Shown in pieces: positions 1-59,284 of a DNA stretch of 64,000 nt (position 1 is its first letter; every line of letters begins with the position of its first letter). The position numbers and the translations under genes were made by a program. Under the pieces are notes generated by a model. That model was not told the origin of the DNA. It worked only from the letters and a program-made list of their open reading frames with translations, and made no database searches. The stretch comes from Escherichia coli. Its GTDB lineage: Bacteria > Pseudomonadota > Gammaproteobacteria > Enterobacterales > Enterobacteriaceae. The stretch lies in NCBI RefSeq assembly GCF_051903065.1, contig NZ_CP178438.1; one strand, written 5' to 3'.

Positions 1-1
1 T

Positions 2-1786
2 TCTCCCGCGCTGTCGAAAATGCAAAAGAAAATCCGGGGATTTAAACGCCAGGCGGAAGAAGCGTCACAGGGTGGGCTGGCGCTTGGGGGCGGACTGGCA
101 GCGGGTCTGACGCTTTCCCTGAAATCTTATGCCGATCAGGAAAACGCCGCCACCGGGCTGAAAGTCGCCATGATGGATGCGAACGGCGAGGTTGGAAAGA
201 GCTTTCAGGACATCAATAAACTGGCTATTGGCCTGGGTAACCAGCTACCTGGTACAACTGCTGATTTCCAGAACATGATGCAGATGCTGGTGCGTCAGGG
301 GATCCCGGCAGAAAACATTCTGGGTGGTGTGGGTAAAGCGACAGCTTATCTTGCGGTACAACTGAAAAAAACACCGGAAGCGGCTGCTGAGTTTGCTGCA
401 AAGATGCAGGATGCTACCGGAACGGCGTCAGAAGACATGATGGGGCTGTTCGACACTATCCAGAAGGCGTTTTATCTGGGCGTTGACGATACCAACATGT
501 TGTCCTTCTTCACTAAAACCAGTTCTGTTCTGAAGATGGTGAACAAGGATGGTCTTCAGGCTGCACAGAGCCTTGCCCCCATCAGCGTCATGATGGATCA
601 GATGGGGATGAACGGGGAGTCGGCAGGTAATGCCCTGCGAAAAGTTATCCAGTCCGGATTAAGCGTTAAGAAAATCAGGGACGTTAATAAAGTTATGGCC
701 CGCCAGAAACTCGGGGTACAGCTCGATTTTACTGACGGCAAAGGAAGTTTTGGCGGTCTTGATAACATGTTCAGGCAACTGGCAAAGCTGCGAAAACTGA
801 CCGACGTTAAGCGAACAGGTGTACTTAAGGCAATATTTGGTGATGATGCCGAAACCCTTCAGGTGGTCAATGCACTAATCGATAAAGGAAAGGATGGCTA
901 CGATCAGATCCAGCAGAAGATGAATAAACAGGCCAGCCTGAATAAACGTGTTCAGGCACAGCTTGGTACGCTGTCCAACCTGTGGGAGGCAATGACGGGG
1001 ACCGCAACTAACGGCCTTGCGGCTATTGGCGGCGCATTTTCTGGTGACGCTAAAAATATCACACAATGGCTGGGGGAGTTGGGGGAGAAATTCACGAAGT
1101 TTGCGGATGAAAATCCCCGGGTTATTCGCGGCGTCGTCGGGCTTGCTGCCGGTCTTACGATTCTGAAACTGGGATTGATGGGCGTGGGCAGTGCCATCAG
1201 TATTGTCAGCAGGATTATGTCGATGACGCCGATTGGCATGATTGCGACGGCGATTGCTCTGGCTGCGGGATTAATTATCACTAACTGGGATGTTGTCGGA
1301 CCTTATTTCAAGAAGCTCTGGGAAACCATTGGTCCTTATTTTGAGGCAGGTTGGGAACTTCTGAAGAAGGTTTTTGCCTGGTCGCCGCTGGGGATGGTTA
1401 TCAATAACTGGGGACCGGTTGTTAAGTGGTTTCAGGATATGTGGGACAAGCTGAAGCCAATTATTGAGTGGTTTACCGACAGTTCCGGTGACACGGTCGA
1501 TGCCATTAACTCTGCGCAGTGGGGCGCGGGTGCTTATGATGCTTATGGGACGGGAATACCGGCGCGGGGATACACACCTTATCCGGCGGTGGATCCGGCT
1601 CAGTCAAACAACGCCTCCGATGCCACAGGCTCGAATCCCTTCATGATTAACAAAGCTTCTGTGCCAAAAGTTGATGGTGAGATCAAGGTATCTTTTGTGA
1701 ATTCGCCTCCGGGTATGCGGGTTATGGAAACGCGATCCAGCGGTTTTGATGTCAGCCATGATGTTGGCTATACGCGGTTCAGGTAG
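2..1786 (+). CDS. Phage tail tape measure protein (5'-truncated by window edge)
   Basis: Frame is open from the window start; Gly/Ala-rich hydrophobic segment (GVVGLAAGLTILKLGLMGVGSAISIV) and W-rich repeats (WDVVGPYFKKLWETIGPYFEAGWELL) typical of tape measure proteins; sits just upstream of the baseplate genes. Confidence 0.7.
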   Translation, partial: SPALSKMQKKIRGFKRQAEEASQGGLALGGGLAAGLTLSLKSYADQENAATGLKVAMMDANGEVGKSFQDINKLAIGLGNQLPGTTADFQNMMQMLVRQGIPAENILGGVGKATAYLAVQLKKTPEAAAEFAAKMQDATGTASEDMMGLFDTIQKAFYLGVDDTNMLSFFTKTSSVLKMVNKDGLQAAQSLAPISVMMDQMGMNGESAGNALRKVIQSGLSVKKIRDVNKVMARQKLGVQLDFTDGKGSFGGLDNMFRQLAKLRKLTDVKRTGVLKAIFGDDAETLQVVNALIDKGKDGYDQIQQKMNKQASLNKRVQAQLGTLSNLWEAMTGTATNGLAAIGGAFSGDAKNITQWLGELGEKFTKFADENPRVIRGVVGLAAGLTILKLGLMGVGSAISIVSRIMSMTPIGMIATAIALAAGLIITNWDVVGPYFKKLWETIGPYFEAGWELLKKVFAWSPLGMVINNWGPVVKWFQDMWDKLKPIIEWFTDSSGDTVDAINSAQWGAGAYDAYGTGIPARGYTPYPAVDPAQSNNASDATGSNPFMINKASVPKVDGEIKVSFVNSPPGMRVMETRSSGFDVSHDVGYTRFR

Positions 1787-1885
1787 TGTACAAAATGATT
1801 AATGTGTTTTTGTCTGGCATAATTTGGGTTTTCAGCTTTAAGTAGTTAATATAATCATTCCTTACAAATGATTGAAGGGATGATT

Positions 1886-2380
1886 ATGCGTATCTTTGTT
1901 TTTTTTATATCTGCACTTTTATCTTTTAACTTGGCTGCGGAAGAGTGTAAGTTCAGCTTTAATGAGTCAGAATTAATCTCTTCTATAGGTATTGCACCAG
2001 TTAAGCAAGAGATAATAAAGGATGAAGGAATAACTAAGCGGCAATATGAATTCAGAAGAGAATTATCTTCTGAAGAAATGCTTAGTGATGACGCTGATGA
2101 AAAATATGAGCCGCAGTTTTATATATCTGTTTATAATCCATCATGCCCACAAAAGGTTATTGTTTGGTTTTTCAAAGACAATAAAAACACAATGGATTTA
2201 AGTAATGAGGTCCTTGCTGGTAGAGCGTTCAAGTATTTAACTGGTGTTAATGAAAGTATTTTTGAAAATAAAATGAAAAAGTTTTTAAAGGTACAGTCAT
2301 TTGAATCTTTTGATGAAAGGACAGATTCTAAATTTATAAAGAGTGGTGATATTTATTCCATTGATGTTCAACTCAGATAG
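1886..2380 (+). CDS. Hypothetical secreted protein; AT-rich accessory gene (moron) inside the tail module
   Basis: ORF 1868..2380; the ATG at 1886 is preceded by AGGGA; N-terminal signal-peptide-like segment MRIFVFFISALLSFNLAAEE; markedly AT-rich compared with the flanking GC-rich tail genes; no recognisable family. Confidence 0.5.
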   Translation: MRIFVFFISALLSFNLAAEECKFSFNESELISSIGIAPVKQEIIKDEGITKRQYEFRRELSSEEMLSDDADEKYEPQFYISVYNPSCPQKVIVWFFKDNKNTMDLSNEVLAGRAFKYLTGVNESIFENKMKKFLKVQSFESFDERTDSKFIKSGDIYSIDVQLR

Positions 2381-2399
2381 TAATTAAAAATATTAGGTT

Positions 2400-2456
2400 C
2401 CCGCCACATCTTCTGCGATGTAAATAACTGACAAAGCAGATTTGGCGGGTTTTTTG
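2400..2456 (+). terminator. Putative hairpin plus T-run downstream of the moron
   Basis: cccgcca ... tggcggg inverted repeat followed by tttttt. Confidence 0.35.
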
Positions 2457-2470
2457 TATCCGGAGTTTAT

Positions 2471-3799
2471 ATGACGTGGAAAGACAGGCTTCAGGATGCG
2501 TCATTTCGCGGCGTACCGTTTAAGGTTGAAGAAGAAAGTGCGGGAACCGGTCGCCGTGTGGAAACACACGAATATCCGAACCGCGACAAGCCCTATACCG
2601 AAGATCTGGGAAAAGTCACTTTCCGCCCGTCCATCACAGCTTATGTGGTGGGAGATGACTGCTTTGACCAGCGCGATCGCCTGATTGACGCGCTGAATAA
2701 ACCCGGTCCCGGCACGCTTGTCCACCCGACATATGGTGAGCTGAAAGTCTGTGTTGACGGGGAAGTTCGGGTCAGCACATCGAAAAGTGAAGGGCGTATT
2801 GTCCGCTTTGACCTGAAGTTTGTCGAAGCAGGAGAACTCTCTTACCCCACATCAGGTGCGGCGACGGCGCAGACGCTGATGTCATCCTGTTCTGCACTGG
2901 ATGACTGCATCAGTGACAGCTTCAGCGGTTTCAGTATCGATGGTGTGGCGGATTTCGTGCAGAACGACGTTATCGGTAATGCCAGCATAATGCTGGGGTA
3001 TGTTTCTGATGCGATGAAAGTGGTGGATTCTGCCGTATCGGATGCCGCCAGGCTGTTGCAGGGGGATATCTCGGTACTTCTGCCGCCGCCATCGTCAGGC
3101 AAAAATTTCGTTGAGCAGGTGCAGAAAATGTGGCGTACCGGGAAACGCCTTTATGGTAACGCCAGCGACCTGGTCACCATGATCAAAACGCTTTCCGGTG
3201 TCAGCCTCGGCAGCGATCTGCAACCGCGCGGCGTCTGGAAAACGGACAGTAAAACCACCGCCACGGCGACGCAGCAGCGTAACGTGGTTGCCAGCACCCT
3301 TCGTACGACCGCAATCAGCGAAGCGGCGTATGCCGTCACACGATTGCCTGCGCCCACAACTTCCGCGGTGATGCAGAATGCCACAGTGGGGCCGTCAACA
3401 ACACCCACGCAGAGCACCGGCTGGCCTTTTGTCACGCATCCGGCACTGAACAATGCACCGGCGGTGAAAAACACGGTTGACCTGCCAACGTGGGAAGAAC
3501 TGACCGACATTCGCGACACACTGAATACGGCAATTGATAAGGAGTTGTCCCGTACAACCAGTGATGCGCTGTTTCTGGCGCTGCGCCGGGTGAAAGCAGA
3601 TCTGAATGCGGATATCAACACGCGCCTTGAACAGTCTGCACGGATCATTCAGCGCACGCCGGATGAGGTTTTACCCGCGCTGGTGCTGGCGGCGACCTGG
3701 TTTGATAACGCGGCGCGTGACGCGGACATTATCCGGCGTAATGCCATTACGCATCCCGGCTTTGTGCCGGTGATCCCTCTGAAGGTGCCAGTGCAATGA
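2471..3799 (+). CDS. Phage DNA circulation protein (Mu gp43/N-like)
   Basis: 442 aa; N-terminus MTWKDRLQDASFRGVPFKVEEE...HEYPNRD matches the Mu-like DNA circulation family as I recall it; located between tape measure and baseplate genes. Confidence 0.7.
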   Translation: MTWKDRLQDASFRGVPFKVEEESAGTGRRVETHEYPNRDKPYTEDLGKVTFRPSITAYVVGDDCFDQRDRLIDALNKPGPGTLVHPTYGELKVCVDGEVRVSTSKSEGRIVRFDLKFVEAGELSYPTSGAATAQTLMSSCSALDDCISDSFSGFSIDGVADFVQNDVIGNASIMLGYVSDAMKVVDSAVSDAARLLQGDISVLLPPPSSGKNFVEQVQKMWRTGKRLYGNASDLVTMIKTLSGVSLGSDLQPRGVWKTDSKTTATATQQRNVVASTLRTTAISEAAYAVTRLPAPTTSAVMQNATVGPSTTPTQSTGWPFVTHPALNNAPAVKNTVDLPTWEELTDIRDTLNTAIDKELSRTTSDALFLALRRVKADLNADINTRLEQSARIIQRTPDEVLPALVLAATWFDNAARDADIIRRNAITHPGFVPVIPLKVPVQ

Positions 3800-4875
3800 A
3801 CGACAATGTCACGCTACGGGTAAATGGCCGGGAGTGGAATGGCTGGACATCGGTGCGCATCGGTGCCGGTATTGAACGGCTGGCGCGGGATTTCAGTGTG
3901 GAGATCACTCGCCAGTGGCCGGGAGATGAGGGTATCACCACGCTTCAGCCGCGCATTAAAAACGGTTCAAAAGTGGAAGTGCTGATTGGTGATGAGCTGG
4001 TGATCACCGGCTGGGTGGAGGCGACTCCCGTTCGTTACGATGCCCGTTCGGTCAGCACCGGTATTGCCGGACGTAGTCTGACGGCTGACCTGATTGACTG
4101 TGCAGCCGAACCGACACAGTTTAACGGACGCTCGCTGGTGCAGATTGCGCAGGCGCTTGCTGCGCCTTTCGGCATTGAGGTGGTGAACAGCGGTGCGCCG
4201 TCGGGTGTTATTCCTGATGTTCAGCCTGATCACGGTGAAACGGTGATTGAGGTAATCAACAAAATACTCGGTCAGCAGCAGGCGCTGGCTTACGACGACC
4301 CGCACGGCAGGCTGGTGATTGGCGGTATTGGCTCAACGCGGGCACATACCGCGCTGGTACTCGGGGAAAACATCCTTTCCTGTGATACGGAGAAGAGTAT
4401 CCGGGAGCGGTTTTCTGTTTACCAGGTGGCGGGGCAGCGTGCCGGAAACGACGATGATTTCGGTGAGGCCACCACCACCGCGCTGCGGGCCCGCACAGAG
4501 GACGCATTTATTGCCCGTTACCGTCCGATGTATATCAGGCAGACAGGGCAGGCCACGGGGGCAGGTTGTATTGCGCGTGCTGACTTTGAAGCCCGACAAC
4601 GGGCGGCGCGGACGGATGAAACCACCTATGTGGTGCAGGGCTGGCGACAGGGTAACGGTACGCTGTGGCAGCCCAACCAGCGGGTGATTGTCTTCGATCC
4701 GGTCTGTGGTTTCGACAATACCGAACTGCTTGTCTCGGAAGTCACGTTTACTCAGGACCAGAACGGCACCCTGACGGAAATCCGTGTCGGCCCACCTGAT
4801 GCTTATCTGCCTGAACCCGAAGCCCCCGGCGCGCGGAAAAAGAAAAAAGCCAGAGTACAGGAGGACCCGTTCTGA
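3796..4875 (+). CDS. Phage baseplate hub / tail protein (Mu gp44/P-like)
   Basis: 359 aa; start overlaps the upstream stop (ATGA); position in the Mu-type module. Confidence 0.65.
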   Translation: MNDNVTLRVNGREWNGWTSVRIGAGIERLARDFSVEITRQWPGDEGITTLQPRIKNGSKVEVLIGDELVITGWVEATPVRYDARSVSTGIAGRSLTADLIDCAAEPTQFNGRSLVQIAQALAAPFGIEVVNSGAPSGVIPDVQPDHGETVIEVINKILGQQQALAYDDPHGRLVIGGIGSTRAHTALVLGENILSCDTEKSIRERFSVYQVAGQRAGNDDDFGEATTTALRARTEDAFIARYRPMYIRQTGQATGAGCIARADFEARQRAARTDETTYVVQGWRQGNGTLWQPNQRVIVFDPVCGFDNTELLVSEVTFTQDQNGTLTEIRVGPPDAYLPEPEAPGARKKKKARVQEDPF

Positions 4876-5423
4876 TGAGGACGATTGAAGCCATGCAGCG
4901 ACAACTTCTCGGCCTGATTGGGCGGGCGGTGGTGAAAAGCATCAGTGCCGCCACGAAATGTCAGACCGTGGATGTGTCCCTGATTGCCGGTGAACCCAAA
5001 GCCGGGGTTGAACATCTTGAACCCTACGGTTTTACCGCAAGGGCAAACAGCGGTGCGGAAGCGGTGGTGTTGTTTCCGGATGGCGACCGTTCTCATGCGG
5101 TGGTTGTTACGGTGTCGGACCGGCGCTACCGCCTGAAAGGGCTGCAGACGGGTGAGGTGGCTGTCTATGACGATCAGGGGCAGTCCGTGACGCTGACCCG
5201 GGCGGGGATCGTGGTGGACGGTGCAGGTAAAACGATTACGTTTCGCAATGCGCCTAAGGCTCGTTTTGAAATGGACCTGGAAGTGACCGGACAGGTGAAA
5301 GACCTGTGCGACTCCACCGGCACCACCATGTCAGCGATGCGACTTGCCTATAACGGGCATCGTCACAGAGAGAACGGTCAGGGCAGTAACACCGACAAAC
5401 CTGATAAAGCGATGGAGGCATGA
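4875..5423 (+). CDS. Phage baseplate assembly protein V / spike (Mu gp45-like)
   Basis: 182 aa; gpV-like size and position; overlapping start/stop with neighbours. Confidence 0.65.
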   Translation: MRTIEAMQRQLLGLIGRAVVKSISAATKCQTVDVSLIAGEPKAGVEHLEPYGFTARANSGAEAVVLFPDGDRSHAVVVTVSDRRYRLKGLQTGEVAVYDDQGQSVTLTRAGIVVDGAGKTITFRNAPKARFEMDLEVTGQVKDLCDSTGTTMSAMRLAYNGHRHRENGQGSNTDKPDKAMEA

Positions 5424-5848
5424 TGGAACTGTGGCTGACGGTGAACGGTAAACGCACCTGCGCCAGCGCACAACTGGATCCGCTGACCCGCGCCGTGGTG
5501 ATTTCCCTGTTTACCTGGCGGCGGGCGGAGCCTGATGACAACGCCGACGTCCCGATGGGATGGTGGGGGGATACCTGGCCTGCGGTACAGAATGACCGTT
5601 ACGGCTCCCGACTGTGGCTGCTTCAGCGCAGCAAACTGACCAATCAGCTGGTGCAGACGGTAAGGGGGTATATCCGCGAATGCCTGCAATGGATGATTGA
5701 TGACGGCGTGGTGTCCCGTATTGATCTGGATATCCGCCGCACCGGGATTAATGAACTGGGTAACAGTATCACTCTCTGGCGTCGTGACGGACCGGTAATG
5801 ATTTCTTTTGATGATCTGTGGAGTGCGATAACGCATGGCGGACAGTGA
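5420..5848 (+). CDS. Phage GP46-family baseplate protein
   Basis: 142 aa; position and size match Mu gp46. Confidence 0.6.
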   Translation: MMELWLTVNGKRTCASAQLDPLTRAVVISLFTWRRAEPDDNADVPMGWWGDTWPAVQNDRYGSRLWLLQRSKLTNQLVQTVRGYIRECLQWMIDDGVVSRIDLDIRRTGINELGNSITLWRRDGPVMISFDDLWSAITHGGQ

Positions 5849-6893
5849 ATTTCAGCGCCCGACGCTGGCAGAAAATATCAGTATGCTCCGTAACGATTTA
5901 TTCGCCAGGCTGGACGTCAGTGACACGCTCCGGCGCATGGATGAAGACGTGCGGGCAAAGGTGTATGCGGCGGCGCTGCATACGGTTTACGGTTACATCG
6001 ATTATCTGGCAATGAACATGCTGCCTGACCTGTGCGATGAGTCCTGGCTGGCGCGACATGCTGCGATGAAACGGTGTCCGCGCAAGGGGGCGACGGCTGC
6101 CAGCGGGTATATGCGCTGGGAAGGTGTCAGCGATGGCCTGAAGGTGACCGCCGGGAGTGTTATTCAGCGCGATGACCTGGTTCAGTACACGGCAACTGCC
6201 GATGCAACCAGCTCCGGTGGTGTCCTGCGCGTGCCGATCGCCTGCTCAAGTGCAGGTGCGGTCGGTAACGCTGACGACGGTACGGCATTAATCCTGGTCA
6301 CGCCGGTGAATGGTCTGCCGTCTTCCGGTGTGGCTGACACCCTTACAGGCGGATTTGATACTGAAGAGCTGGAAACGTGGCGCGCCCGCGTCATTGAGCG
6401 GTATTACTGGACGCCTCAGGGCGGGGCTGACGGGGACTATGTCGTCTGGGCTAAAGAAGTGCCCGGCATTACCCGCGCATGGACATACCGTCACTGGATG
6501 GGAACGGGAACTGTCGGTGTGATGATTGCCAGCAGTGACCTGATTAATCCCATTCCGGAAGAATCAACGGAAACGGCAGCAAGACAACATATCGTGCCAC
6601 TGGCCCCGGTGGCAGGCTCTGATTTGTATGTATTCAGGCCGGTGGCACATACGGTGGATTTTCATATCCGCGTGACGCCGGACACACCAGAAATACGAGC
6701 CGCCATCACCGCGGAGTTGCGTTCGTTTCTTCTGCGTGATGGTTATCCGCAGGGAGAACTGAAGGTATCGCGTATCAGTGAGGCGATTTCCGGTGCGAAC
6801 GGGGAATATAGCCATCAGTTGCTTGCACCGGCAGACAATATCTCCATTGCGAAAAATGAACTGGCGGTTCTGGGGACGATTTCATGGACGTGA
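5835..6893 (+). CDS. Phage baseplate J-like wedge protein (Mu gp47-like)
   Basis: 352 aa; conserved synteny. Confidence 0.65.
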
Positions 6894-7468
6894 CAAACGA
6901 TGATTACATCCGTCTGTTGTCGGCACTGTTGCCACCCGGTCCGGCGTGGTCAGCCAGAGATCCGGCGATTGCCGGTGCGGCACCGTCATTAACCCGCGTT
7001 CATCAGCGTGCGGATGCCCTGATGCGGGAGCTGGATCCGCGCACCACCACTGAACTGATAAACCGCTGGGAGCGTCTGTGCGGTCTGCCGGATGAATGTA
7101 TTCCCGCAGGGACACAGACCCTTCGCCAGCGTCAGCAACGACTGGATGCGAAGGTTAACCTGGCGGGCGGCATCAATGAGGATTTTTACCTTGCACAGCT
7201 TGCTGCCCTGGGCAGACCAGATGCCACCATCACGCGATACGACAAAAGCACCTTCACCTGCTCATCGGCCTGTACTGACGCGGTGAATGCGCCGGAATGG
7301 CGGTATTACTGGCAGGTCAACATGCCAGCTGCCACCAACACTACCTGGATGACATGTGGCGATCCCTGTGATTCCGCACTGCGTATCTGGGGGGACACCG
7401 TTGTCGAGTGTGTGCTTAACAAACTCTGCCCGTCGCATACCTACGTAATTTTTAAATATCCGGAGTAA
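6884..7468 (+). CDS. Phage tail protein (Mu gp48 / DUF2313-like)
   Basis: 194 aa; position immediately upstream of the tail fibre gene. Confidence 0.6.
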
Positions 7469-7471
7469 TCC

Positions 7472-8512
7472 ATGCATCGTATAGACACGAAAACCGCGCA
7501 GAAGGATAAGTTCGGCGCGGGTAAGAACGGTTTTACCCGTGGTAACCCCCAGACCGGCACACCTGCCACCGATCTGGATGATGACTACTTTGACATGTTG
7601 CAGGAGGAGCTTTGCAGCGTTGTGGAGGCATCAGGTGCCAGCCTGGAGAAGGGGCGGCATGACCAGTTACTTACCGCACTTCGCGCGCTGCTGTTAAGCC
7701 GCAAGAATCCGTTTGGCGATATCAAATCGGATGGCACGGTGAAAACAGCTCTCGAAAACCTTGGTTTGGCTAATTACGCAGACAAAGCAAGTCTGGCGAA
7801 TCAGGAGTTTTCTGGTCCCGTATCATCTAAAGACTGCGTTACCGCAACATCGGCAGATGGGGTAACCCGCAAAGTATCGCTTAATGCCAGTACGGGTTTG
7901 AAGATAGTTATTTATGATGGCGGAACTTACAAGGGGGCAATAAACATCCCGGCAAAAGACGGGACAATGGCACTTGTATCTGATTTGGCTAATTTTGCTG
8001 ATAAATTGAGTGCTTCTGAGCAATATTTTAAAGGACCTGTTTCATCCGGGGATGGGCTCATAGCAAAATATGGCACCGCAAAAATAATTCTGTCAGCCCA
8101 AAACGGTCAGAGAATTGTTGTTTATACAAACGACACTTACCGTGGAGCTATTAATATTCCACTTCGTGACGGAACTATGGCGCTCCTGGATGATGTTACT
8201 AATGTTAGCGCAACGCTGCTGGGTATATCTCAGTCATGGCAGAACGTGAAAGCCAGCCGTAGTGCCGGGGTTACGTATACCAACTCAACAGGCAGGCCCA
8301 TTGCAGTTTCAATCGCCGGAATAATGGCAACACGTCAGAATGGAGTTCAGTTGTCACTTGCCGTTAATGGCACAGAGGCTTCAAGTTTTGCCGTGACTGA
8401 CAGCTCGTTTGACATCAGGGGTAACGTATTTGCGATTGTGCCACCAGGAGCAACTTACAAACTTACAGCAAATAACATTAATTCTATTTTGACCTGGTCG
8501 GAGCTTCGCTAA
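7472..8512 (+). CDS. Phage tail fibre protein
   Basis: 346 aa; N-terminus [10 protein letters not shown]...[23 protein letters not shown] resembles the conserved tail-fibre N-terminal domain; internal ~60-aa duplication; followed by an assembly chaperone gene. Confidence 0.75.
7749..7774. other. hix/gix-like imperfect palindrome inside the tail fibre gene (candidate invertase crossover site)
   Basis: ctctcGAAAACC-TT-GGTTTggctaat; compare the hix half-site TTCTTGAAAACC; lies at the junction of the conserved N-terminal and variable C-terminal fibre regions (codons ~93-101). Confidence 0.45.
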
Positions 8513-8889
8513 TGAATACGGTAATCAAAGAGCAAAAATTCTTTAAGGACTCGGCCGGTGTGATTTTTTGCATCGACATCATGGAAATGAATGCTGAGTC
8601 ATGGGGTGAAGAAGTACAGGCCGGATGGCAGGAAATTAGTGCCGATGAAGCGCTATTAATTGCTAATCCACCGCCTACAGAGGAACAGCTATTTGAACAG
8701 GTTAGGGCGCAGAAACAGGCCCTGATTTCCGAGGCGACTGCAATTATAGATCCACTTAAGGATGCACTGGATGGTGGCTATATCGACGATGCAGACAAAC
8801 CAAGACTGACTGAATGGCAAAAGTACCGCTATGAGGTGACGAAAGTTGATCCGGGAAAACCTGTGTGGCCACCGAAGCCTACAGAATAG
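8512..8889 (+). CDS. Tail fibre assembly protein (Tfa/U-like chaperone)
   Basis: 125 aa; start overlaps the fibre stop; C-terminus ...KYRYEVTKVDPGKPVWPPKPTE typical of Tfa proteins. Confidence 0.75.
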   Translation: MNTVIKEQKFFKDSAGVIFCIDIMEMNAESWGEEVQAGWQEISADEALLIANPPPTEEQLFEQVRAQKQALISEATAIIDPLKDALDGGYIDDADKPRLTEWQKYRYEVTKVDPGKPVWPPKPTE

Positions 8890-8932
8890 GAACATTTTTT
8901 ATAACCATCAAAAATCTGGTGATATTTCGCCT

Positions 8933-8958
8933 CTTCTCCTGTTTTTACAACAGGAGAA
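8933..8958 (+). other. Perfect 10-bp stem hairpin overlapping the invertase Shine-Dalgarno sequence
   Basis: cttctcctgt-tttaca-acaggagaag; the right arm contains AGGAG positioned 7 nt before the invertase ATG at 8965. Confidence 0.5.
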
Positions 8959-8964
8959 GCACTC

Positions 8965-9528
8965 ATGATTTACGGGTATGTTCGTGTATCAACAAATCAT
9001 CAGGATACAGAGTTGCAACGTCTTGCACTTGAGTCAGCTGGCTGTGAGCGAATTTATGAAGAATATGCCAGTGGCAGAACAGCTAATCGCCCTGTGTTAA
9101 AGGAATTAATTACGGTGATGAAAAGTGGAGATGAGTTGATTGTCTGGAAGTTAGATCGGATAGGGAGAAATGTGCTGCATGCGCTATTTATGTTTCAAAA
9201 TCTGCACGAAAAAGGTGTTAATTTTCGGAGTATTACAGATGGCGTAGACCTGAAAACAGCAAGTGGTCGCTATAATTTCCGTAATATTCTTTCTGCTGCG
9301 CAGTATGAATCTGATTTGAATAGCGAGCGAACTTTAGCTGGTTTGGCTATTGCCAGATCCAAAGGCCGGATTGGTGGGCGTAGACCGAAGTTTAGCGACG
9401 AGCAGTGGCAACAGATGGGAGCGCTCATAGCGGCAGGGAAATCACGGCGTTATGTTGCACGTATCTATAACGTTGGGCTATCAACCCTATATAAACGATT
9501 TCCTGTTACTGGCATTCAAACGAAATAA
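8965..9528 (+). CDS. Serine recombinase, DNA invertase (Gin/Pin/Hin family)
   Basis: 187 aa; MIYGYVRVSTNHQ...LDRIGRN motifs characteristic of resolvase/invertase family; adjacent to tail fibre genes as in the Mu G-segment/gin arrangement. Confidence 0.85.
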   Translation: MIYGYVRVSTNHQDTELQRLALESAGCERIYEEYASGRTANRPVLKELITVMKSGDELIVWKLDRIGRNVLHALFMFQNLHEKGVNFRSITDGVDLKTASGRYNFRNILSAAQYESDLNSERTLAGLAIARSKGRIGGRRPKFSDEQWQQMGALIAAGKSRRYVARIYNVGLSTLYKRFPVTGIQTK

Positions 9529-9671
9529 TTTAAAAGCAATTTAAAGAGTTATTTGTCTAATGTTGGAAGCCGCAGCCACGTCGTATGCAAGAACGTGCTG
9601 CGGCTGGCTGGCGAACTTTCGATAGTGCGAGTATTGAATGATTTCCAGCCGTTACCGATTTTACGTGTTAA

Positions 9672-9920
9672 TTAGTGAACAAACCACTCGTCAGCAGATT
9701 CCCAGGTATCTTTCAGAGTCTCCTGAACAAAAGTTTTTGCAGAATCCTTATCTGCGGTGCGTGTAACAGAAAGGCCATCGTTGCTGGTGGCTTTTACGAT
9801 CACCTCTACATCGTCATAACGTTTACTGATGCGTCGGGTTAATTCTTCCTTTAACGCATCCACAGCACCGGTTGGCATTTTAGTCATTTTTTCTTTGGCT
9901 ATGCAGATTTCAATACGCAT
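9672..9920 (-). CDS. DinI-family DNA damage-inducible protein
   Basis: 82 aa; MRIEI...[24 protein letters not shown]...DEWFV pattern typical of DinI/MsgA; LexA boxes immediately upstream. Confidence 0.8.
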
Positions 9921-9935
9921 AAAAGTCCCTCTATA

Positions 9936-9979
9936 CTGTGTTTGTATACAGTATTATTTTTAACTGTATAGATAAACAG
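9936..9979 (-). promoter_or_regulatory. Two tandem LexA (SOS) boxes upstream of the DinI-like gene
   Basis: taCTGTgtttgtatACAGta (9936-9951) and aaCTGTatagataaACAGtg (9964-9979), both CTGT-N8-ACAG. Confidence 0.75.
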
Positions 9980-9981
9980 TG

Positions 9982-11079
9982 TCAAGAGGCCTTATTTCTG
10001 CTCCTTTGGAGCTCTTCAAAACGATTATGTAAAGATTTCGGATACAGTTCGGTATATACCTGCCATAGCACGTTTAATGAACGATGCCCTGTAACCTGGG
10101 CGACTTCCTCAATACTAAAACCAGCCTCAAATAAGCGACTTGCCCCTTCTCTACGCAAATCATGGTATCGCAGATCTTTAATACCTAATTTGCTTCTTAC
10201 CCTCTGGAATCCCGCAGTAACAGAAGTGCTGTTATATGGAAAAATGAATTCTGATTTTTTGGGTTGTCGTTGGACGATATCCCAGGCTTCCCCAAGCAAG
10301 GCTACTTTCATATGGTTGCCTTCCTTTTTACGTGGATCTTTCCTGTCTCTTACGAGTATGGATTTTTGTTCCTGATCGAGATCCTCCCATCGTAATCGGC
10401 ATACTTCACCGATTCGCATACATGACCACACAGAAAATTTGAGGATATCAACGAACGGAATTTTTGAGCATTTATGTGTAGATCGTTGTTGAAGACCTTC
10501 AATGAGCATGTCCAGTTCATCAGATGCCGGTCTACGATTACGACGATTTGATTTACCAATTAAACCAAGTTTAAGTAGATATGGACGAGCGGCTTTTGCT
10601 GGGTTTGATGTGTAATTAATTCCATATACAGGTTTGGCAGCATCCAGAACACTGCCAAGATAACTAACATCGTGGCTAACTGTAGCTGGACCTGCACCAG
10701 CGTTGTTTCTTAGCCTGCAATGTTCAATTACGTCATTTTCTGTCAGTTCAGATAGTTTGAGCGCGGAGACGTCACTATCCATAAGCAGTTCCAGCACATA
10801 TCTTTTAGTACGGCCTGCTTTACCTCCGGCATTTGGGTCATTTAAATATTTGTGTAGTAAGTCACGGACTGTAAGTCCGTCAACTGCATTTGATGATGGA
10901 ATGCCATATAGATCTAATTCCATCACTTTCTGTGTGCCCCATGTTTTGGCATGAGCATGTTTAGGGAATGTTTTACTTTCCCTGTAAGTGATAACACCTT
11001 TTTCTTTGATAATCACATTACAGCGATAGCGTGGTGTGCCATCGGATTTTAGTCGTTTCTCTATGTTATAGTATGCCAT
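9982..11079 (-). CDS. Tyrosine-type phage integrase
   Basis: 365 aa; C-terminal region with R...HDLRR...Y spacing typical of tyrosine recombinases; GAGG RBS 8 nt upstream; terminal position of the prophage next to dusA. Confidence 0.8.
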   Translation of the reverse strand: MAYYNIEKRLKSDGTPRYRCNVIIKEKGVITYRESKTFPKHAHAKTWGTQKVMELDLYGIPSSNAVDGLTVRDLLHKYLNDPNAGGKAGRTKRYVLELLMDSDVSALKLSELTENDVIEHCRLRNNAGAGPATVSHDVSYLGSVLDAAKPVYGINYTSNPAKAARPYLLKLGLIGKSNRRNRRPASDELDMLIEGLQQRSTHKCSKIPFVDILKFSVWSCMRIGEVCRLRWEDLDQEQKSILVRDRKDPRKKEGNHMKVALLGEAWDIVQRQPKKSEFIFPYNSTSVTAGFQRVRSKLGIKDLRYHDLRREGASRLFEAGFSIEEVAQVTGHRSLNVLWQVYTELYPKSLHNRFEELQRSRNKAS

Positions 11080-11095
11080 TACACGACCTCGTTAT

Positions 11096-11145
11096 TTCGG
11101 GTTCCCATAAAACGTGGGAACCTGTGCGGGAACCTAACGCGAGAA
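11096..11145. repeat. Cluster of three GGGAACC(C) repeats between the integrase start and dusA (candidate integrase-binding or att-associated repeats)
   Basis: cGGGTTCCCataaaacgtGGGAACCtgtgcGGGAACCtaa. Confidence 0.4.
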
Positions 11146-11167
11146 AAATAGCCTGAAATGTTCAAAA

Positions 11168-12205
11168 ATGCACGATAATCATGAAACACAAAAAATTAAT
11201 CAAACCAGCGTGATGCCTGAAAAAACTGGTGTTTACTGGAATTCTCGGTTTAGCATTGCTCCTATGCTCGACTGGACGGACAGACATTGCCGCTATTTCT
11301 TGCGTCTGCTTTCCCGCAATACGTTGCTGTATACCGAAATGGTGACTACAGGGGCGATTATTCACGGTAAAGGTGATTATCTGGCGTACAGTGAAGAAGA
11401 ACATCCGGTAGCGTTGCAACTGGGCGGTAGCGATCCGGCGGCGCTGGCGCAGTGTGCGAAGCTGGCAGAAGCGCGCGGATATGATGAGATCAACCTGAAT
11501 GTCGGCTGCCCGTCTGACCGGGTGCAGAACGGCATGTTTGGTGCGTGTCTGATGGGTAATGCGCAGCTGGTTGCCGACTGCGTGAAAGCGATGCGCGATG
11601 TGGTGTCGATTCCGGTGACGGTGAAAACGCGTATTGGCATCGATGATCAGGACAGCTATGAATTTCTCTGCGATTTCATCAACACCGTTTCCGGCAAAGG
11701 CGAGTGTGAGATGTTCATCATCCATGCACGTAAAGCCTGGCTTTCGGGGTTAAGCCCGAAAGAAAACCGTGAAATCCCGCCGCTCGATTATCCGCGTGTG
11801 TATCAACTGAAGCGTGACTTTCCGCATCTGACAATGTCCATTAACGGTGGCATCAAGTCGCTGGAAGAAGCTAAAGCGCATTTGCAACATATGGATGGCG
11901 TGATGGTCGGGCGCGAGGCGTATCAGAATCCGGGTATTCTGGCGGCGGTAGACCGGGAGATCTTTGGTTCCTCGGATACCGATGCCGATCCGGTTGCGGT
12001 AGTGCGCGCCATGTATCCGTACATTGAGCGTGAACTCAGCCAGGGGACGTATCTCGGCCATATTACCCGGCATATGCTGGGCTTGTTCCAGGGTATTCCT
12101 GGCGCGCGGCAGTGGCGGCGTTATTTAAGTGAAAATGCCCATAAAGCGGGTGCAGACATTAATGTGCTGGAACACGCGCTCAAACTGGTGGCGGATAAGC
12201 GTTAA
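11168..12205 (+). CDS. dusA: tRNA-dihydrouridine synthase A
   Basis: 345 aa; recognised DusA sequence and K-12 synteny (dusA-pspG-qorA-dnaB); extreme N-terminus may be prophage-supplied. Confidence 0.9.
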
Positions 12206-12287
12206 CTTTTCACCAAAAAGTAGTCAAATTCACCACGCCCTGCGCACCGTCGCGGGGCGTTTTGCTGTTAAATCAATAGATTATTTT

Positions 12288-12303
12288 TGGCATGATTCTT
12301 GTA
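12288..12303 (+). promoter_or_regulatory. Candidate sigma54 promoter of pspG
   Basis: TGGCAT-gattc-TTGTA, resembling the TGGCAC-N5-TTGCA consensus, ~35 nt upstream of the pspG ATG. Confidence 0.45.
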
Positions 12304-12746: not shown

Positions 12747-13730
12747 TTATGGAATCAACAGGCTGGAACCTTGCGTCGCCCGGCTTTCCAGAATCTCATG
12801 CGCACGCTGCGCATCCTTCAGCGGATATTTCTGCTGTTCGGCGACATCGACCTTAATCACACCGCTGGCAATCAAAGAGAACAGTTCATTACTGGCCTCG
12901 GTTAATTCCTCCCGCGTGGTGATATAGCCTTGCAGGGAAGGGCGTGTCACATACAACGAGCCTTTTTGATTGAGAATGCCTAAGTTCACACCGGTAACCG
13001 CACCTGATGAGTTGCCAAAACTCACCATTAAGCCGCGGCGTTGCAGGCAATCCAGCGACCGTTCCCAGGTGTCTCTGCCCACGGAATCGTACACTACGCG
13101 CACTTTCTTACCGCCGGTGATCTCTTTCAATCGCTCGACCAGATTCTCTTCACGATAGTTAATAACCTGCCACGCGCCCGCTTTTAGCGCGCTCTGCGCT
13201 TTTTGCGCGGTTCCTACGGTGCCGATAAGTTTCGCGCCCAGGGCTTTTGCCCACTGGCAGGCAATCAAGCCAACGCCGCCAGCTGCTGCGTGGAACAGGA
13301 ACTGTTCATCGGGTTTAATTTCATAGGTTTTGCGCAGCAGATAATAAACCGTTAAGCCTTTCAGGAAAGATGCTGCAGCTTGCTCAAAAGAAATTGCCGC
13401 AGGCAGAATCGCCGCTTTATCCGCATTAATGTTATGCACAGAGCTGTAAGCGCCTAACGCCGACTGCGCATAGACTACACGATCGCCAGCCTTAATATGC
13501 TTTACACCACTGCCGACTTTACTCACGATGCCTGCCGCTTCGGTACCTAATCCGCTGGGTAGTGATGGCGGCGGGTAAAGGCCGCTGCGGATATACGTGT
13601 CGATAAAATTGATGCCGATGGCTTTATTTTCGACCTGGATTTCATTCTCCGCCGGATCGGCAGGAGTGAACTCTACGGCTTGAAGTACTTCCGGGCCACC
13701 GTGCTTGTGAAATTCAATTCGTGTTGCCAT
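12747..13730 (-). CDS. qorA: Quinone oxidoreductase (NADPH)
   Basis: 327 aa from internal Met MATRIEFHKHGGPEVLQ...; track ORF is over-extended at the 5' end. Confidence 0.9.
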   Translation of the reverse strand: MATRIEFHKHGGPEVLQAVEFTPADPAENEIQVENKAIGINFIDTYIRSGLYPPPSLPSGLGTEAAGIVSKVGSGVKHIKAGDRVVYAQSALGAYSSVHNINADKAAILPAAISFEQAAASFLKGLTVYYLLRKTYEIKPDEQFLFHAAAGGVGLIACQWAKALGAKLIGTVGTAQKAQSALKAGAWQVINYREENLVERLKEITGGKKVRVVYDSVGRDTWERSLDCLQRRGLMVSFGNSSGAVTGVNLGILNQKGSLYVTRPSLQGYITTREELTEASNELFSLIASGVIKVDVAEQQKYPLKDAQRAHEILESRATQGSSLLIP

Positions 13731-13812
13731 GTGTCCTCCAGAACGTATCGTCAGGGTCTGCTTCATATGGTAAAGTTTCGACCCATTCTTTATCTCGGTA
13801 ACTCCATTCACT

Positions 13813-15228
13813 ATGGCAGGAAATAAACCCTTCAACAAACAGCAGGCTGAACCCCGCGAACGCGATCCACAAGTTGCCGGGCTGAAAGTGCCTCCGCACT
13901 CGATCGAAGCGGAGCAGTCGGTGTTGGGCGGTTTAATGCTGGATAACGAACGCTGGGATGATGTAGCCGAGCGTGTGGTAGCAGACGATTTTTACACCCG
14001 CCCACACCGTCATATCTTTACTGAAATGGCGCGTTTGCAGGAAAGCGGTAGTCCTATCGATCTGATTACCCTTGCGGAATCGCTGGAACGCCAGGGGCAA
14101 CTCGATAGCGTCGGTGGTTTTGCTTATCTGGCAGAGTTGTCAAAAAATACGCCAAGTGCGGCGAACATCAGTGCCTATGCGGACATCGTGCGTGAACGTG
14201 CCGTTGTCCGTGAGATGATCTCGGTTGCGAATGAGATTGCCGAAGCTGGTTTTGATCCGCAGGGGCGTACCAGCGAAGATCTGCTGGATCTGGCTGAATC
14301 CCGCGTCTTTAAAATTGCCGAAAGTCGTGCGAACAAAGACGAAGGGCCGAAGAACATCGCCGATGTGCTCGACGCAACCGTGGCACGTATTGAGCAGTTG
14401 TTTCAGCAGCCACACGATGGCGTTACCGGGGTAAACACCGGTTATGACGATCTCAACAAAAAAACCGCTGGCTTGCAGCCGTCGGATTTGATCATCGTCG
14501 CCGCGCGTCCGTCGATGGGTAAAACAACATTTGCGATGAACCTCGTCGAAAACGCGGCGATGTTGCAGGATAAACCGGTACTTATCTTCTCGCTGGAGAT
14601 GCCATCAGAACAGATCATGATGCGTTCTCTGGCGTCGCTGTCTCGCGTTGACCAGACTAAAATCCGTACCGGGCAGCTCGATGATGAAGACTGGGCGCGC
14701 ATTTCCGGCACCATGGGTATTTTGCTCGAAAAACGCAATATCTATATCGATGACTCCTCCGGCCTGACGCCAACGGAAGTGCGTTCCCGCGCACGCCGTA
14801 TTGCCCGTGAACACGGCGGCATCGGGCTTATCATGATCGACTACCTGCAACTGATGCGCGTACCGGCACTTTCCGATAACCGTACGCTGGAAATTGCAGA
14901 AATCTCCCGCTCGCTGAAAGCACTGGCGAAAGAACTGAACGTGCCAGTGGTGGCGCTGTCCCAGTTGAACCGTTCTCTGGAACAACGTGCCGACAAACGT
15001 CCGGTCAACTCCGACCTGCGTGAATCTGGCTCTATCGAGCAGGATGCGGACTTGATCATGTTTATCTATCGTGATGAGGTGTATCACGAAAACAGTGATT
15101 TAAAAGGCATCGCGGAAATTATTATCGGTAAACAACGTAACGGCCCAATCGGGACGGTACGCCTGACCTTTAACGGTCAATGGTCGCGCTTCGACAACTA
15201 TGCGGGGCCGCAGTACGACGACGAATAA
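13813..15228 (+). CDS. dnaB: Replicative DNA helicase
   Basis: 471 aa; Walker A GKTTFAMN motif; recognised DnaB. Confidence 0.97.
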   Translation: MAGNKPFNKQQAEPRERDPQVAGLKVPPHSIEAEQSVLGGLMLDNERWDDVAERVVADDFYTRPHRHIFTEMARLQESGSPIDLITLAESLERQGQLDSVGGFAYLAELSKNTPSAANISAYADIVRERAVVREMISVANEIAEAGFDPQGRTSEDLLDLAESRVFKIAESRANKDEGPKNIADVLDATVARIEQLFQQPHDGVTGVNTGYDDLNKKTAGLQPSDLIIVAARPSMGKTTFAMNLVENAAMLQDKPVLIFSLEMPSEQIMMRSLASLSRVDQTKIRTGQLDDEDWARISGTMGILLEKRNIYIDDSSGLTPTEVRSRARRIAREHGGIGLIMIDYLQLMRVPALSDNRTLEIAEISRSLKALAKELNVPVVALSQLNRSLEQRADKRPVNSDLRESGSIEQDADLIMFIYRDEVYHENSDLKGIAEIIIGKQRNGPIGTVRLTFNGQWSRFDNYAGPQYDDE

Positions 15229-34835: not shown

Positions 34836-34941
34836 TAGGCCGGATAAGGCGTTATACGCCGCATCCGGCAATCAATGCCTGATGCGACGCTGTCGCGTCT
34901 TATCAGGCCTACAAACCGTTACCGACTCGCATCCGGCAATT
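34836..34941. repeat. REP/BIME cluster between yjcH and acs
   Basis: gccggataaggcgttatacgccgcatccggca and gcctgatgcgacgctgtcgcgtcttatcaggcctac REP units. Confidence 0.85.
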
Positions 34942-45338: not shown

Positions 45339-45517
45339 CCGGGGTTATCCCCCGGCAATGTGTGGATGCCTGATGCGACGCTGGTGCGTCTTATCAGGCC
45401 TACGTCAGACAGCGCAATAGCCTGATTTAGCGTGATTTTGTAGGTCGGATAAGGCGTTTACGCCGCATCCGACATCAACGCCTGATGCGACGCTTAACGC
45501 GTCTTATCAGGCCTACC
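45339..45517. repeat. BIME (multiple REP units) downstream of gltP
   Basis: Hairpin gccggggttatcccccggc followed by repeated gcctgatgcgacgc...gtcttatcaggcctac and ggataaggcgtttacgccgcatcc units. Confidence 0.85.
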
Positions 45518-55679: not shown

Positions 55680-55969
55680 ATAAATCTCCATTTATCATTT
55701 ATGTCGTAAATATGTAATCCATGCAAAATACGTCATTTAAAGCTGGCGTTATCATAATTGGGAAATTGCGACTTTAATAAGTGGAAGTGTGAGCGGAACG
55801 ATCCATTTTATTAGGCATTTGTGCTGAAGAGGGAAAAGTACGGCATATTTATTACTATCATCAATAATGTGACCTGACTTATATTTTTATTATTTATATT
55901 ACTTTCAGCTTTCACTTCGACAAGAAGTACGCACAATGATTAATCAGATGAATGATGCGGAGTGTAACC

Positions 55970-56677
55970 ATGAAACCCGTCGTGCTGGTGGTGGATGATG
56001 ACACGGCTATCTGCGCACTGTTGCAGGACGTGTTAAGTGAACATGTCTTTACGGTTTCAGTCTGCCATACCGGACAGGAGGCCATATTGCGTATTGAGGG
56101 CGATCCTGACATTGCGCTGGTGGTGCTGGATATGATGCTACCCGATACCAACGGCCTGAGAGTATTGCAGCAAATCCAGAAACTGCGTCCGACATTGCCG
56201 GTGGTGATGTTGACCGGCATGGGCAGTGAGTCTGATGTGGTGGTCGGGCTGGAAATGGGCGCGGATGATTACATCTGCAAACCGTTCACCCCGCGGGTGG
56301 TGGTCGCACGACTGAAAGCGGTGTTGCGACGGGTTGGTGCGCTGGCGGTTAATGACGAGAAAAGCGCCGGGCTGTCATTCAATGGCTGGTATCTCGATAC
56401 CATGCGCTGCCAGTTGCACAATCCGCTTCAGCAACATGTCGAGTTAACTCAGGGCGAATATGGCTTGTTACTGGCTCTGGCGCAAAACGCGCGTCGGGTA
56501 TTGAGCCGCGAGCAGTTGCTGGCGTTCACCCACAGCGACAGCGTGGAGGTGTTTGATCGCACCATCGACGTATTAATCATGCGCTTACGACGCAAAATCG
56601 AACTCAACCCGCATCAGCCGATGTTGATTAAAACTCTGCGCGGTCTGGGGTATGTCTTCGCTGCCGACGTGCATTAA
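55970..56677 (+). CDS. OmpR/PhoB-family response regulator
   Basis: 235 aa; receiver domain (VVDDD...D at ~55 aa...K) plus winged-helix C-terminus (...TLRGLGYVF); GGAG RBS 8 nt upstream; not present at this position in K-12. Confidence 0.85.
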   Translation: MKPVVLVVDDDTAICALLQDVLSEHVFTVSVCHTGQEAILRIEGDPDIALVVLDMMLPDTNGLRVLQQIQKLRPTLPVVMLTGMGSESDVVVGLEMGADDYICKPFTPRVVVARLKAVLRRVGALAVNDEKSAGLSFNGWYLDTMRCQLHNPLQQHVELTQGEYGLLLALAQNARRVLSREQLLAFTHSDSVEVFDRTIDVLIMRLRRKIELNPHQPMLIKTLRGLGYVFAADVH

Positions 56678-57675
56678 TCCGACATTTCTGTTTGCAGCTC
56701 TTCCAGCGTTTTCGCCCCGTCGATGGCATTGGCGCATAACAGGCTTGCCCGCGCGCAGGCGTGTGCCAGTTTGATGCTCTCGGTAAGCGTCCAGCGTTCA
56801 TGGCAGCCATATAAAAATCCGGCACAAAATGCATCGCCCGCGCCGACGCTGCCGATAATTTCCCGTTGTTCTAACTTTTGCGAAGGGATCCACACGCCGC
56901 CCTGTTCTGGGGTCTCTCCCCACGCCCCTTCCGGGCAGTGGATCACCACCCGCTGGCGCACGCCCGCATCTAACAGTTCACGCGCGGCGGCAGCAATATG
57001 CGCGATATGCGGTTCGCCGTTGGGTAACCGAATTTCCAGCCCGCTAAACTCCCCGGCCTCCAGTTCGTTAATTACCAGATAATCCAGATGGCGCAACGCG
57101 GGCAGCACCAGCGGCTGATAACGCGGATCGCCCTTACGGGAGACCAGGTCGAGTGAGGTTTCAAAGCCAGTATCACGCATTTGCGCCAGCAGGCGTGCGC
57201 TACGGGTGCCGTAAACATCGTCCGGCATATCCAGGCTGTCGAGCAACAGTAAATAGCCGAGATGGAAAATCTTCATGGTGTTATCGAGCTGATCGAACGC
57301 CGGAAGATCCAAAAGTCTGTTTGCACCCGGCGAATGGAAAAACGTCCGCTGCCCGCTTGGGTCTGTCATCACCTGCGACATCGACGTCGGGGCAAAGGTA
57401 GTGCGCTGCACATGCTGACGATTGACGTGATATTGCTCAAGCATCGCCATGATGTAATCGCCGTCGCTGTCCTGACCGATTAGCCCAACCGCCTGTAACG
57501 GCAGCCCGGTGCGCATTTTCGCCAGCGTCAGCAGGACGTTAAGCGGCGCACCGCCGGTGGAGCGTTCGCTGTGGGTGATCTCCGCCAGCCAGCCGCGCTC
57601 TGGCCACTGGATAATCTGATGGACGTGGTCAACCAACATATTGCCTGCGGCGATAATCCCTTTACGCTCCATCAT
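56674..57675 (-). CDS. PfkB-family carbohydrate kinase
   Basis: 333 aa; C-terminal GAGDAFCAGFLYG ribokinase-family signature; start ATG overlaps the aldolase stop (ATGA). Confidence 0.8.
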   Translation of the reverse strand: MMERKGIIAAGNMLVDHVHQIIQWPERGWLAEITHSERSTGGAPLNVLLTLAKMRTGLPLQAVGLIGQDSDGDYIMAMLEQYHVNRQHVQRTTFAPTSMSQVMTDPSGQRTFFHSPGANRLLDLPAFDQLDNTMKIFHLGYLLLLDSLDMPDDVYGTRSARLLAQMRDTGFETSLDLVSRKGDPRYQPLVLPALRHLDYLVINELEAGEFSGLEIRLPNGEPHIAHIAAAARELLDAGVRQRVVIHCPEGAWGETPEQGGVWIPSQKLEQREIIGSVGAGDAFCAGFLYGCHERWTLTESIKLAHACARASLLCANAIDGAKTLEELQTEMSD

Positions 57676-58532: not shown

Positions 58533-58546
58533 AACGTTATCCTTAT

Positions 58547-59230: not shown

Positions 59231-59284
59231 CGAAAGCGTTCTCCTTAGCGGTGACCGGGCAGCTGCGCCGCCCGGCGTGTGGAC

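Follow-up and report, generated by a model that had tools for sequence, protein, structure and literature searches.

Analysis of a 64,000-nucleotide stretch of Escherichia coli DNA (assembly GCF_051903065.1, contig NZ_CP178438.1; the whole stretch is called the window here) showed that positions 1-11271 are, with high confidence, the right arm of an SfV-like prophage, a temperate myovirus with site-specific integration that is inserted in the 5' end of the tRNA-modification gene dusA. The prophage is of an already catalogued phage type and combines two well-described groups, the SfV-like phages and the dusA-associated integrase (DAI) elements. It is regarded as known because a near-identical genome, that of Escherichia phage SKA5, has been deposited and because the SfV record labels the tail genes as Mu-like (annotated as "similar to phage Mu" N, P and gp45-gp48). 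The stretch 11165-55841 was collinear with MG1655 4261666-4306759 at ~98% identity (dusA, pspG, qorA, dnaB, alr and onward to yjcS), and the stretch left of dusA was non-K-12 DNA.

The right prophage boundary and the hybrid dusA

The attachment sites were defined by a four-way alignment of attR (the window), attB (MG1655, in which dusA is unoccupied), attL (strain 23CRST027) and attP (SKA5). The only stretch common to all four was the att core ATGCTCGA at 11264-11271, which forms the crossover region and the right prophage boundary (attR) and sits in the dusA codons for the conserved PMLD motif. The attL site was the same as attB up to ...CCAATGCTCGA and then followed attP (TAGGATGTACC...), and attR was the same as attP up to ...CCTATGCTCGA and then followed attB (CTGGACGGAC...). 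This is a clean reciprocal exchange at the core, with imperfect similarity on its flanks. The sequence GCTCCTATGCTCGACTGGA agreed at 18 of 19 positions with the C. rodentium dusA attB published for phage phi1720a-02 (PMC6328086), and the att motif CCWATGCTCGAYWGGAYG occurred once in the window against 0.02 occurrences expected by chance.

Left of the core lies phi-dusA', the 5' end of dusA that the phage brings as a replacement (codons 1-32, 11168-11263, plus strand), which was identical to the SKA5 attP arm and matched native dusA at 78 of 96 nucleotides (81%). After the core, 919 of 934 nucleotides (98.4%) were identical to MG1655 dusA, and the 88 nucleotides upstream of phi-dusA' were unrelated to the native upstream region (22/88). 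The host-derived remainder of the gene (11272-12205, plus strand) continued in frame with phi-dusA', giving a hybrid open reading frame (ORF) at 11168-12205 of 345 amino acids that scored 581 bits against TIGR00742 (DusA). All nine amino-acid differences (9/9) between the window protein and K-12 DusA fell within residues 3-30. Simple allelic variation was rejected as the origin of the divergent dusA 5' end, because the level of identity changes abruptly at the core and the stretch before it is identical to phage attP.

The preliminary description had ended the element at the integrase, at position 11160 immediately before dusA. The adjacency of integrase and dusA stood, and the boundary moved when the window was aligned with the unoccupied gene, as that description had proposed: because the crossover core lies at 11264-11271, the prophage ends at about 11271 and not at 11160, and the dusA start codon and first 96 nucleotides are phage DNA.

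In the proposed mechanism, the tyrosine integrase would recombine attP with dusA at ATGCTCGA. The attP carries a look-alike of the first ~100 nucleotides of dusA together with an upstream region of its own; integration therefore shifts the native 5' end of dusA to attL on the far side, fuses the phage start to the remainder of the gene and leaves an intact 345-amino-acid hybrid DusA. The displaced native 5' fragment was seen in a 99.3%-identical genome, that end of the present element being outside the window. By analogy with related elements, dusA is probably transcribed from the phage-supplied upstream region and the hybrid DusA is probably active.

The dusA-associated integrase module

The integrase gene (9982-11079, minus strand) encodes a 365-amino-acid protein with a match to PF00589 (Phage_integrase) at an E value of 1.5e-20, and an alignment placed its residues R222, H306, R309, H332 and Y342 on the catalytic positions of XerA. 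Its identity to other phage integrases was 99.2% for Stx2d phage phi1720a-02, 98.6% for an Stx2k phage and 97.5% for mEp460; at the DNA level the dinI-int segment (~9570-11160) was 96-97% identical to the lambdoid phages mEp460 and phi1720a-02. The int start (11079, minus strand) and the dusA start (11168) are divergent and 88 nucleotides apart. Between int and the phage-borne dusA start lie three copies of GGGAACC (11100-11134; one inverted and two direct), and a fourth copy is present in the other arm of the SKA5 attP, 65 nucleotides past the core. These repeats are candidate arm-type integrase-binding sites.

Farrugia et al. (2015) defined the DAI and listed mEp460 among the phage-borne homologues (PMC4482086). 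DAI elements insert in the dusA 5' end, island sequence replaces that end, and the att repeats are semi-conserved and 21 bp long (PMC4482086). The window element shows a catalytic integrase domain, the 97.5% relationship to mEp460, a position beside the dusA 5' end, a replaced dusA 5' end and an att core. Phage phi1720a-02 was shown experimentally to integrate 100 bp into dusA, to reconstitute the gene with its own phi-dusA' and to excise with regeneration of attP (PMC6328086). Like the window element, mEp460 and phi1720a-02 use a target ~100 nucleotides into dusA and replace the dusA 5' end (PMC6328086, PMC4482086), but they are lambdoid with non-Mu-like virion modules, some with stx or cdt cargo, whereas here the module is carried on an SfV-type myovirus body. 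For near-identical integrases, site-specific integration at this core, excision from it and the rebuilding of dusA are thus established (PMC6328086, PMC4482086), and by analogy the same would be expected of this one. The preliminary claims that a tyrosine integrase drives the element in place of Mu transposition functions, and that the dusA 5' end is a known target of an integrase family, agree with these results.

Between the invertase and integrase genes lies a gene for a DinI-like protein (9672-9920, minus strand), which was 100% identical in amino acids to its SKA5 counterpart and matched NF007893 (DinI) at an E value of 2e-20, under the curated cutoff. Two LexA-box-like CTGT-N8-ACAG motifs (9936-9951 and 9964-9979) lie upstream of it; both are perfect, and no other perfect match was found in the 64 kb window. 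They overlap a promoter-like site for the gene, which matches the -35/-10 consensus on the minus strand at 9985-9956. Taken at face value, the two motifs imply that expression of the dinI-like gene would be SOS-regulated.

Mu-type tail and baseplate genes

The window proteins were compared directly with phage Mu proteins by BLASTP, and families were assigned by PHROG profile searches. Collinear BLASTP matches in Mu order were obtained for gp43-gp48, U and Gin at 29-51% amino-acid identity, and the tape measure and fibre proteins had no BLASTP match to Mu proteins, being too diverged. The tail tape measure gene (1-1786, plus strand) has its first 47 nucleotides beyond the left window edge, window position 1 being nucleotide 48 of the corresponding gene in NZ_AP045789.1, the 99.3%-identical genome of strain 23CRST027. 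Its product matched PHROG tape-measure families at E values down to 1e-219 and was 99.3% identical in amino acids to the Mup42-like tape measure protein of SKA5.

The baseplate genes follow on the plus strand. The Mu gp43 (N)-like DNA-circulation or baseplate hub protein (2471-3799) matched phrog_184 (E 4e-146) and was 43% identical to Mu gp43 in the N-terminal part only of that protein. The Mu gp44 (P)-like baseplate hub (3796-4875) was 35% identical over 360 amino acids (E 1e-57), and the baseplate spike, which is like Mu gp45 and P2 V (4875-5423), was 29% identical to Mu gp45 (E 1e-17). The Mu gp46-like baseplate wedge (5420-5848) was 41% identical to its Mu counterpart and matched phrog_180; the Mu gp47 or baseplate J-like protein (5835-6893) was 30% identical over 359 amino acids (E 5e-41); and the Mu gp48 or YmfQ-like baseplate wedge (6884-7468) was 29% identical to Mu gp48 and matched phrog_203. 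This collinear gp43-gp48-like set is closely related to that of SfV.

The Mu late region (gp42-gp48, S/U and Gin) likewise has baseplate genes, fibre, chaperone and serine invertase in this order, and Mu-like sheath and gp38 homologues are present in relatives of the window element. Unlike in Mu, integration is site-specific, the relatives are without transposition, early, lysis or head homologues of Mu, and this copy has no equivalent of the G segment. The reading of this region in the preliminary description, a Mu-type tail with structural genes in the Mu late-region order, was borne out: the ORF listing and profile searches placed all of the genes that it named, intact, in the order and on the strands that it gave. 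Only the right arm lies in the window, again as described. The virion would be built with a contractile tail and a baseplate whose genes are distant homologues of Mu gp43-gp48, and the remainder of the phage is predicted to follow its full-length relatives, with lambdoid cI/Cro/Q regulation, an HK97-type head and terminase packaging.

Full-length relatives, mosaic structure and frequency

The closest deposited whole phage was Escherichia phage SKA5 (OR670062.1, 37.6 kb), with 98.2% nucleotide identity over 90% of 1-11160. It shares the gene order of the window element, with the AT-rich ORF described below, the invertase, the dinI-like gene, the integrase and a phage-borne dusA 5' fragment forming attP (a "tRNA-dihydrouridine" fragment adjoining int). 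All comparable ORFs (12/12) were full length, and their products shared 98-100% identity with those of SKA5; the fibre C-terminus and the chaperone differ between the two.

In NZ_AP045789.1 the prophage is ~39 kb long and is bounded on its far side by a 105-nucleotide dusA 5' pseudogene fragment. Next to this fragment are a Panacea-domain gene, a PrtN-family gene and exonuclease/Ea22-type early genes, followed by a LexA-family (cI-type) repressor, a divergent helix-turn-helix gene and replication genes. A methyltransferase, RusA and a Q-type antiterminator come next, then holins, endolysin and spanin, and then an HNH endonuclease, a P27-family small terminase and the large terminase. The portal, an HK97-family prohead protease and the major capsid gene lead on to connector genes, sheath, tube and tape measure, and the window genes complete the prophage up to dusA. 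The HK97-type head, terminase, lysis and lambdoid cI/Cro/Q genes are contiguous with the same tail and integrase in both NZ_AP045789.1 and SKA5.

At the far end of this prophage, beside attL (13192-14546 of the examined stretch), the Panacea-domain protein and a small partner ORF form a possible toxin-antitoxin pair. PrtN-family genes are frequent in dusA-targeting elements, a prtN homologue being present in 64% of DAI islands (PMC4482086), and the one in NZ_AP045789.1 may be an excision directionality factor.

When 31 Mu proteins were searched by TBLASTN (E<=1e-3) against SKA5 and the full prophage of 23CRST027, only gp38, sheath, gp43-48, U and Gin gave matches. In neither genome did the search detect a homologue of Mu c, Ner, A, B or C, or of the Mu lysis, terminase, portal, protease or capsid proteins.

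The Shigella phages SfV, SfI and SfII showed 97.4-97.8% nucleotide identity over the tape measure and baseplate DNA up to 7769, and SfIV was 97.7% identical from 2483 onward. These four serotype-converting phages are lambdoid myoviruses with a Mu-type tail. In SfIV, SfV, SfII and SfI the tail is contractile and the head proteins belong to the HK97 family (PMC3851460). Beyond its fibre genes SfV has the O-antigen genes gtrABV and another integrase, with xis beside it, and it is without the AT-rich ORF and the invertase/dinI module, whereas the window element carries the dusA-specific integrase module.

The prophage part of the window is accordingly a mosaic. The SfV family was nearest over 1-1786 and 2483-7769, and 1787-2470 is an insertion common to SKA5 and absent from SfV. 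The stretch 7770-8912 (fibre variable part and chaperone) was found in two 99.3%-identical genomes and not in SKA5 or the Sf phages. The invertase stretch 8913-9566 is shared with SKA5, with phi80 pinL at 80%, and 9567-11263 is the integration module of mEp460 and the Stx phages.

Frequency was assessed by megablast against 5426 complete E. coli genomes, and those with at least 80% coverage were counted. The int-to-dusA junction (9982-11400) was found in 727 of the 5426 genomes, and the integrase end combined with the SfV-type tail in 51, which cover at least 80% of 1-12300. Two genomes gave 100% coverage at 99.3% identity.

Fibre genes, crossover site and invertase

The tail fibre gene (7472-8512, plus strand) matched PHROG tail-fibre families. 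Its product has a conserved N-terminal part of ~100 amino acids and a swapped, variable C-terminal part, and the SKA5 match was limited to amino acids 1-105. The tail fibre assembly chaperone gene follows (8512-8889, plus strand; phrog_188/136), the C-terminus of its product being 40% identical to Mu U. A serine DNA invertase of the Gin/Pin family (8965-9528, plus strand), 51% identical to Mu Gin over 180 amino acids, adjoins the fibre genes, as do the invertases of the Gin/Hin/Pin/Cin group. Within the fibre variable part (7762-8200) there are two direct repeats of ~219 nucleotides (~73 amino acids), starting at 7762 and 7981 and beginning LANYADK... and LANFADK..., respectively.

A single Gin/Hin-type crossover site, CTCTCGAAAACC-TT-GGTTTGGCTAAT, was located at 7749-7774, at the constant/variable junction of the fibre gene. 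It was the only match to AAACCNNGGTTT in the window and was compared with the Mu gix and SKA5 sites. The nucleotide identity to the SfV family ends at 7769, coinciding with this site. In SKA5 the invertible fibre segment is complete and comprises two fibre/chaperone sets and two crossover sites, the inverted partner lying upstream of the invertase. The window element, in contrast, has one site and one fixed fibre C-terminus with its chaperone, unrelated to those of SKA5; no second crossover site and no second fibre/chaperone set were found in the window, and the region upstream of the invertase is without the site that SKA5 has there. A 12-nucleotide inverted match at 8793-8804 within the chaperone gene was considered as a partner site and rejected; its left half-site is missing, and the match is probably due to chance.

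With one crossover site and one fibre/chaperone set, the invertase is therefore without a local substrate, and a functional Gin-type inversion switch was rejected. From its surroundings, the invertase looks like an orphan without an invertible segment.

Completeness of the prophage and alternative explanations

Several observations weigh against reading 1-11271 as part of a functional temperate phage. The left ~28 kb of the element lies outside the window, and completeness in this strain is not directly visible. The invertase without an invertible segment represents some erosion or rearrangement of the host-range module. NZ_AP045789.1 has annotated frameshifts in several prophage genes, although the same genes are intact in the window. 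A literature search returned no publication describing SKA5 as a plaque-forming virion, and a simple scan found no plus-strand sigma-70 consensus promoter between int and phi-dusA'.

These points bear most on the alternative of a defective remnant, or of a tailocin-like cluster of tail genes only, which has kept the integrase end and lost the head, lysis and regulatory genes left of the window. The reduction of the invertible fibre segment to one fixed fibre/chaperone set beside an orphan invertase would fit such a remnant, as would the absence of the left arm from the window and the frameshifts of the closest genome, which affect among others the genes for the tail terminator, gp44-like and YmfQ proteins. 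In the window, however, the gp44-like and YmfQ genes are free of the frameshifts of 23CRST027; all prophage ORFs of the window were intact in the ORF listing, with the high identity to SKA5 proteins given above, and the tape measure gene crosses the window edge in frame. NZ_AP045789.1, which was inspected in full, and SKA5 both hold a complete head, lysis and regulatory set. An R-type tailocin was rejected, since portal, protease, capsid and terminase genes are contiguous with these tail genes and the integrase in the relatives. A remnant is thus considered quite improbable. By analogy with the 98-99% identical relatives that carry a LexA-family repressor, and with published phages that have the same integrase, the prophage in this strain is probably complete and SOS-inducible.

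Two independent neighbours that happen to abut, a tail cluster and, distinct from it, a small integrase island or satellite that targets dusA, would explain why the integrase-dinI module (9567-11160) is nearest to the siphoviruses mEp460 and Stx phages and the tail module nearest to the SfV family, and small Vibrio elements of ~14 kb with 55%-identical integrases do exist. Differing relatives are nevertheless what ordinary modular mosaicism gives, and the tail, invertase, dinI, int and phi-dusA' are contiguous in the single genome record of SKA5. The window has no second att motif, and the only other att copy in NZ_AP045789.1 is ~39 kb off, past the head and early genes. The preliminary description had named a tail cluster not linked to the integrase as an outcome that would speak against it; the contiguity in NZ_AP045789.1 and SKA5 is the opposite of this, and two neighbours are considered highly improbable.

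A Mu-like transposable phage that happens to adjoin dusA, which had been named there in the same way and to which the tail/baseplate gene order and the Gin-like invertase lend a resemblance, is effectively refuted, since the full-length relatives have no Mu transposase genes and no c, Ner or head homologues in the TBLASTN search, a conserved core and reciprocal, site-specific exchange mark the junction in place of a Mu end with a 5-bp duplication, and protein identity to Mu is only 29-51%.

The AT-rich accessory ORF

An AT-rich accessory ORF (1868-2380, plus strand) lies between the tape measure gene and the gp43-like gene and encodes a protein of 170 amino acids with an N-terminal signal peptide. 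Neither this ORF nor the dinI-like gene was mentioned in the preliminary description. The insert that contains it (1787-2470) has a GC content of 31.6% against 51-57% in the flanks. The sole PHROG match of the ORF was phrog_8976 ("unknown function"), and there was no Pfam or PADLOC match. An AlphaFold2 model was confident (predicted local distance difference test score of 88) and gave no informative fold match among solved structures or AlphaFold models, the matches being weak or to uncharacterised proteins. Homologues were uncharacterised proteins, the named ones from Enterobacteriaceae; a Kosakonia homologue (59% identical) occupies the same slot between a tape measure gene and a DNA_circ_N gene, and the ORF holds this position in more than one enterobacterial genus.

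Other features of the window

No RNA family was found by Rfam inside the prophage part of the window. Outside it, a ~113-bp intergenic repeat of the Rfam naRNA4/CssrE type was present in a single copy at 45368-45516, between gltP and yjcO, where MG1655 has four tandem copies, and a second naRNA4 match was located at 34838-34909. The stretch 55842-64000 was not collinear with the K-12 als operon. It resembles a variable island for sugar utilisation, with genes for an OmpR-type response regulator, a sugar kinase, a ketose-bisphosphate aldolase, a D-lyxose/D-mannose isomerase and a ribose-type ABC transporter.

Implications

The element leaves the current understanding of these phages unchanged. 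Two readings with wider consequences, together considered unlikely, are that the AT-rich ORF could be a new lysogenic-conversion or superinfection-exclusion factor, and that tRNA D20 modification could come under phage-specified expression in ~13% of E. coli strains through replacement of the dusA promoter and first 32 codons. The result matters mostly for annotation: the prophage boundary truly lies within dusA, and the gene annotated as dusA is a hybrid of phage and host sequence whose upstream region was supplied by the phage. The arrangement is common, the int-to-dusA junction being present in 727 of 5426 complete E. coli genomes. The prophage is also an example of phage modular exchange, in which one dusA integration module is found here on an SfV-type myovirus and elsewhere on lambdoid Stx, Cdt and mEp460 phages.

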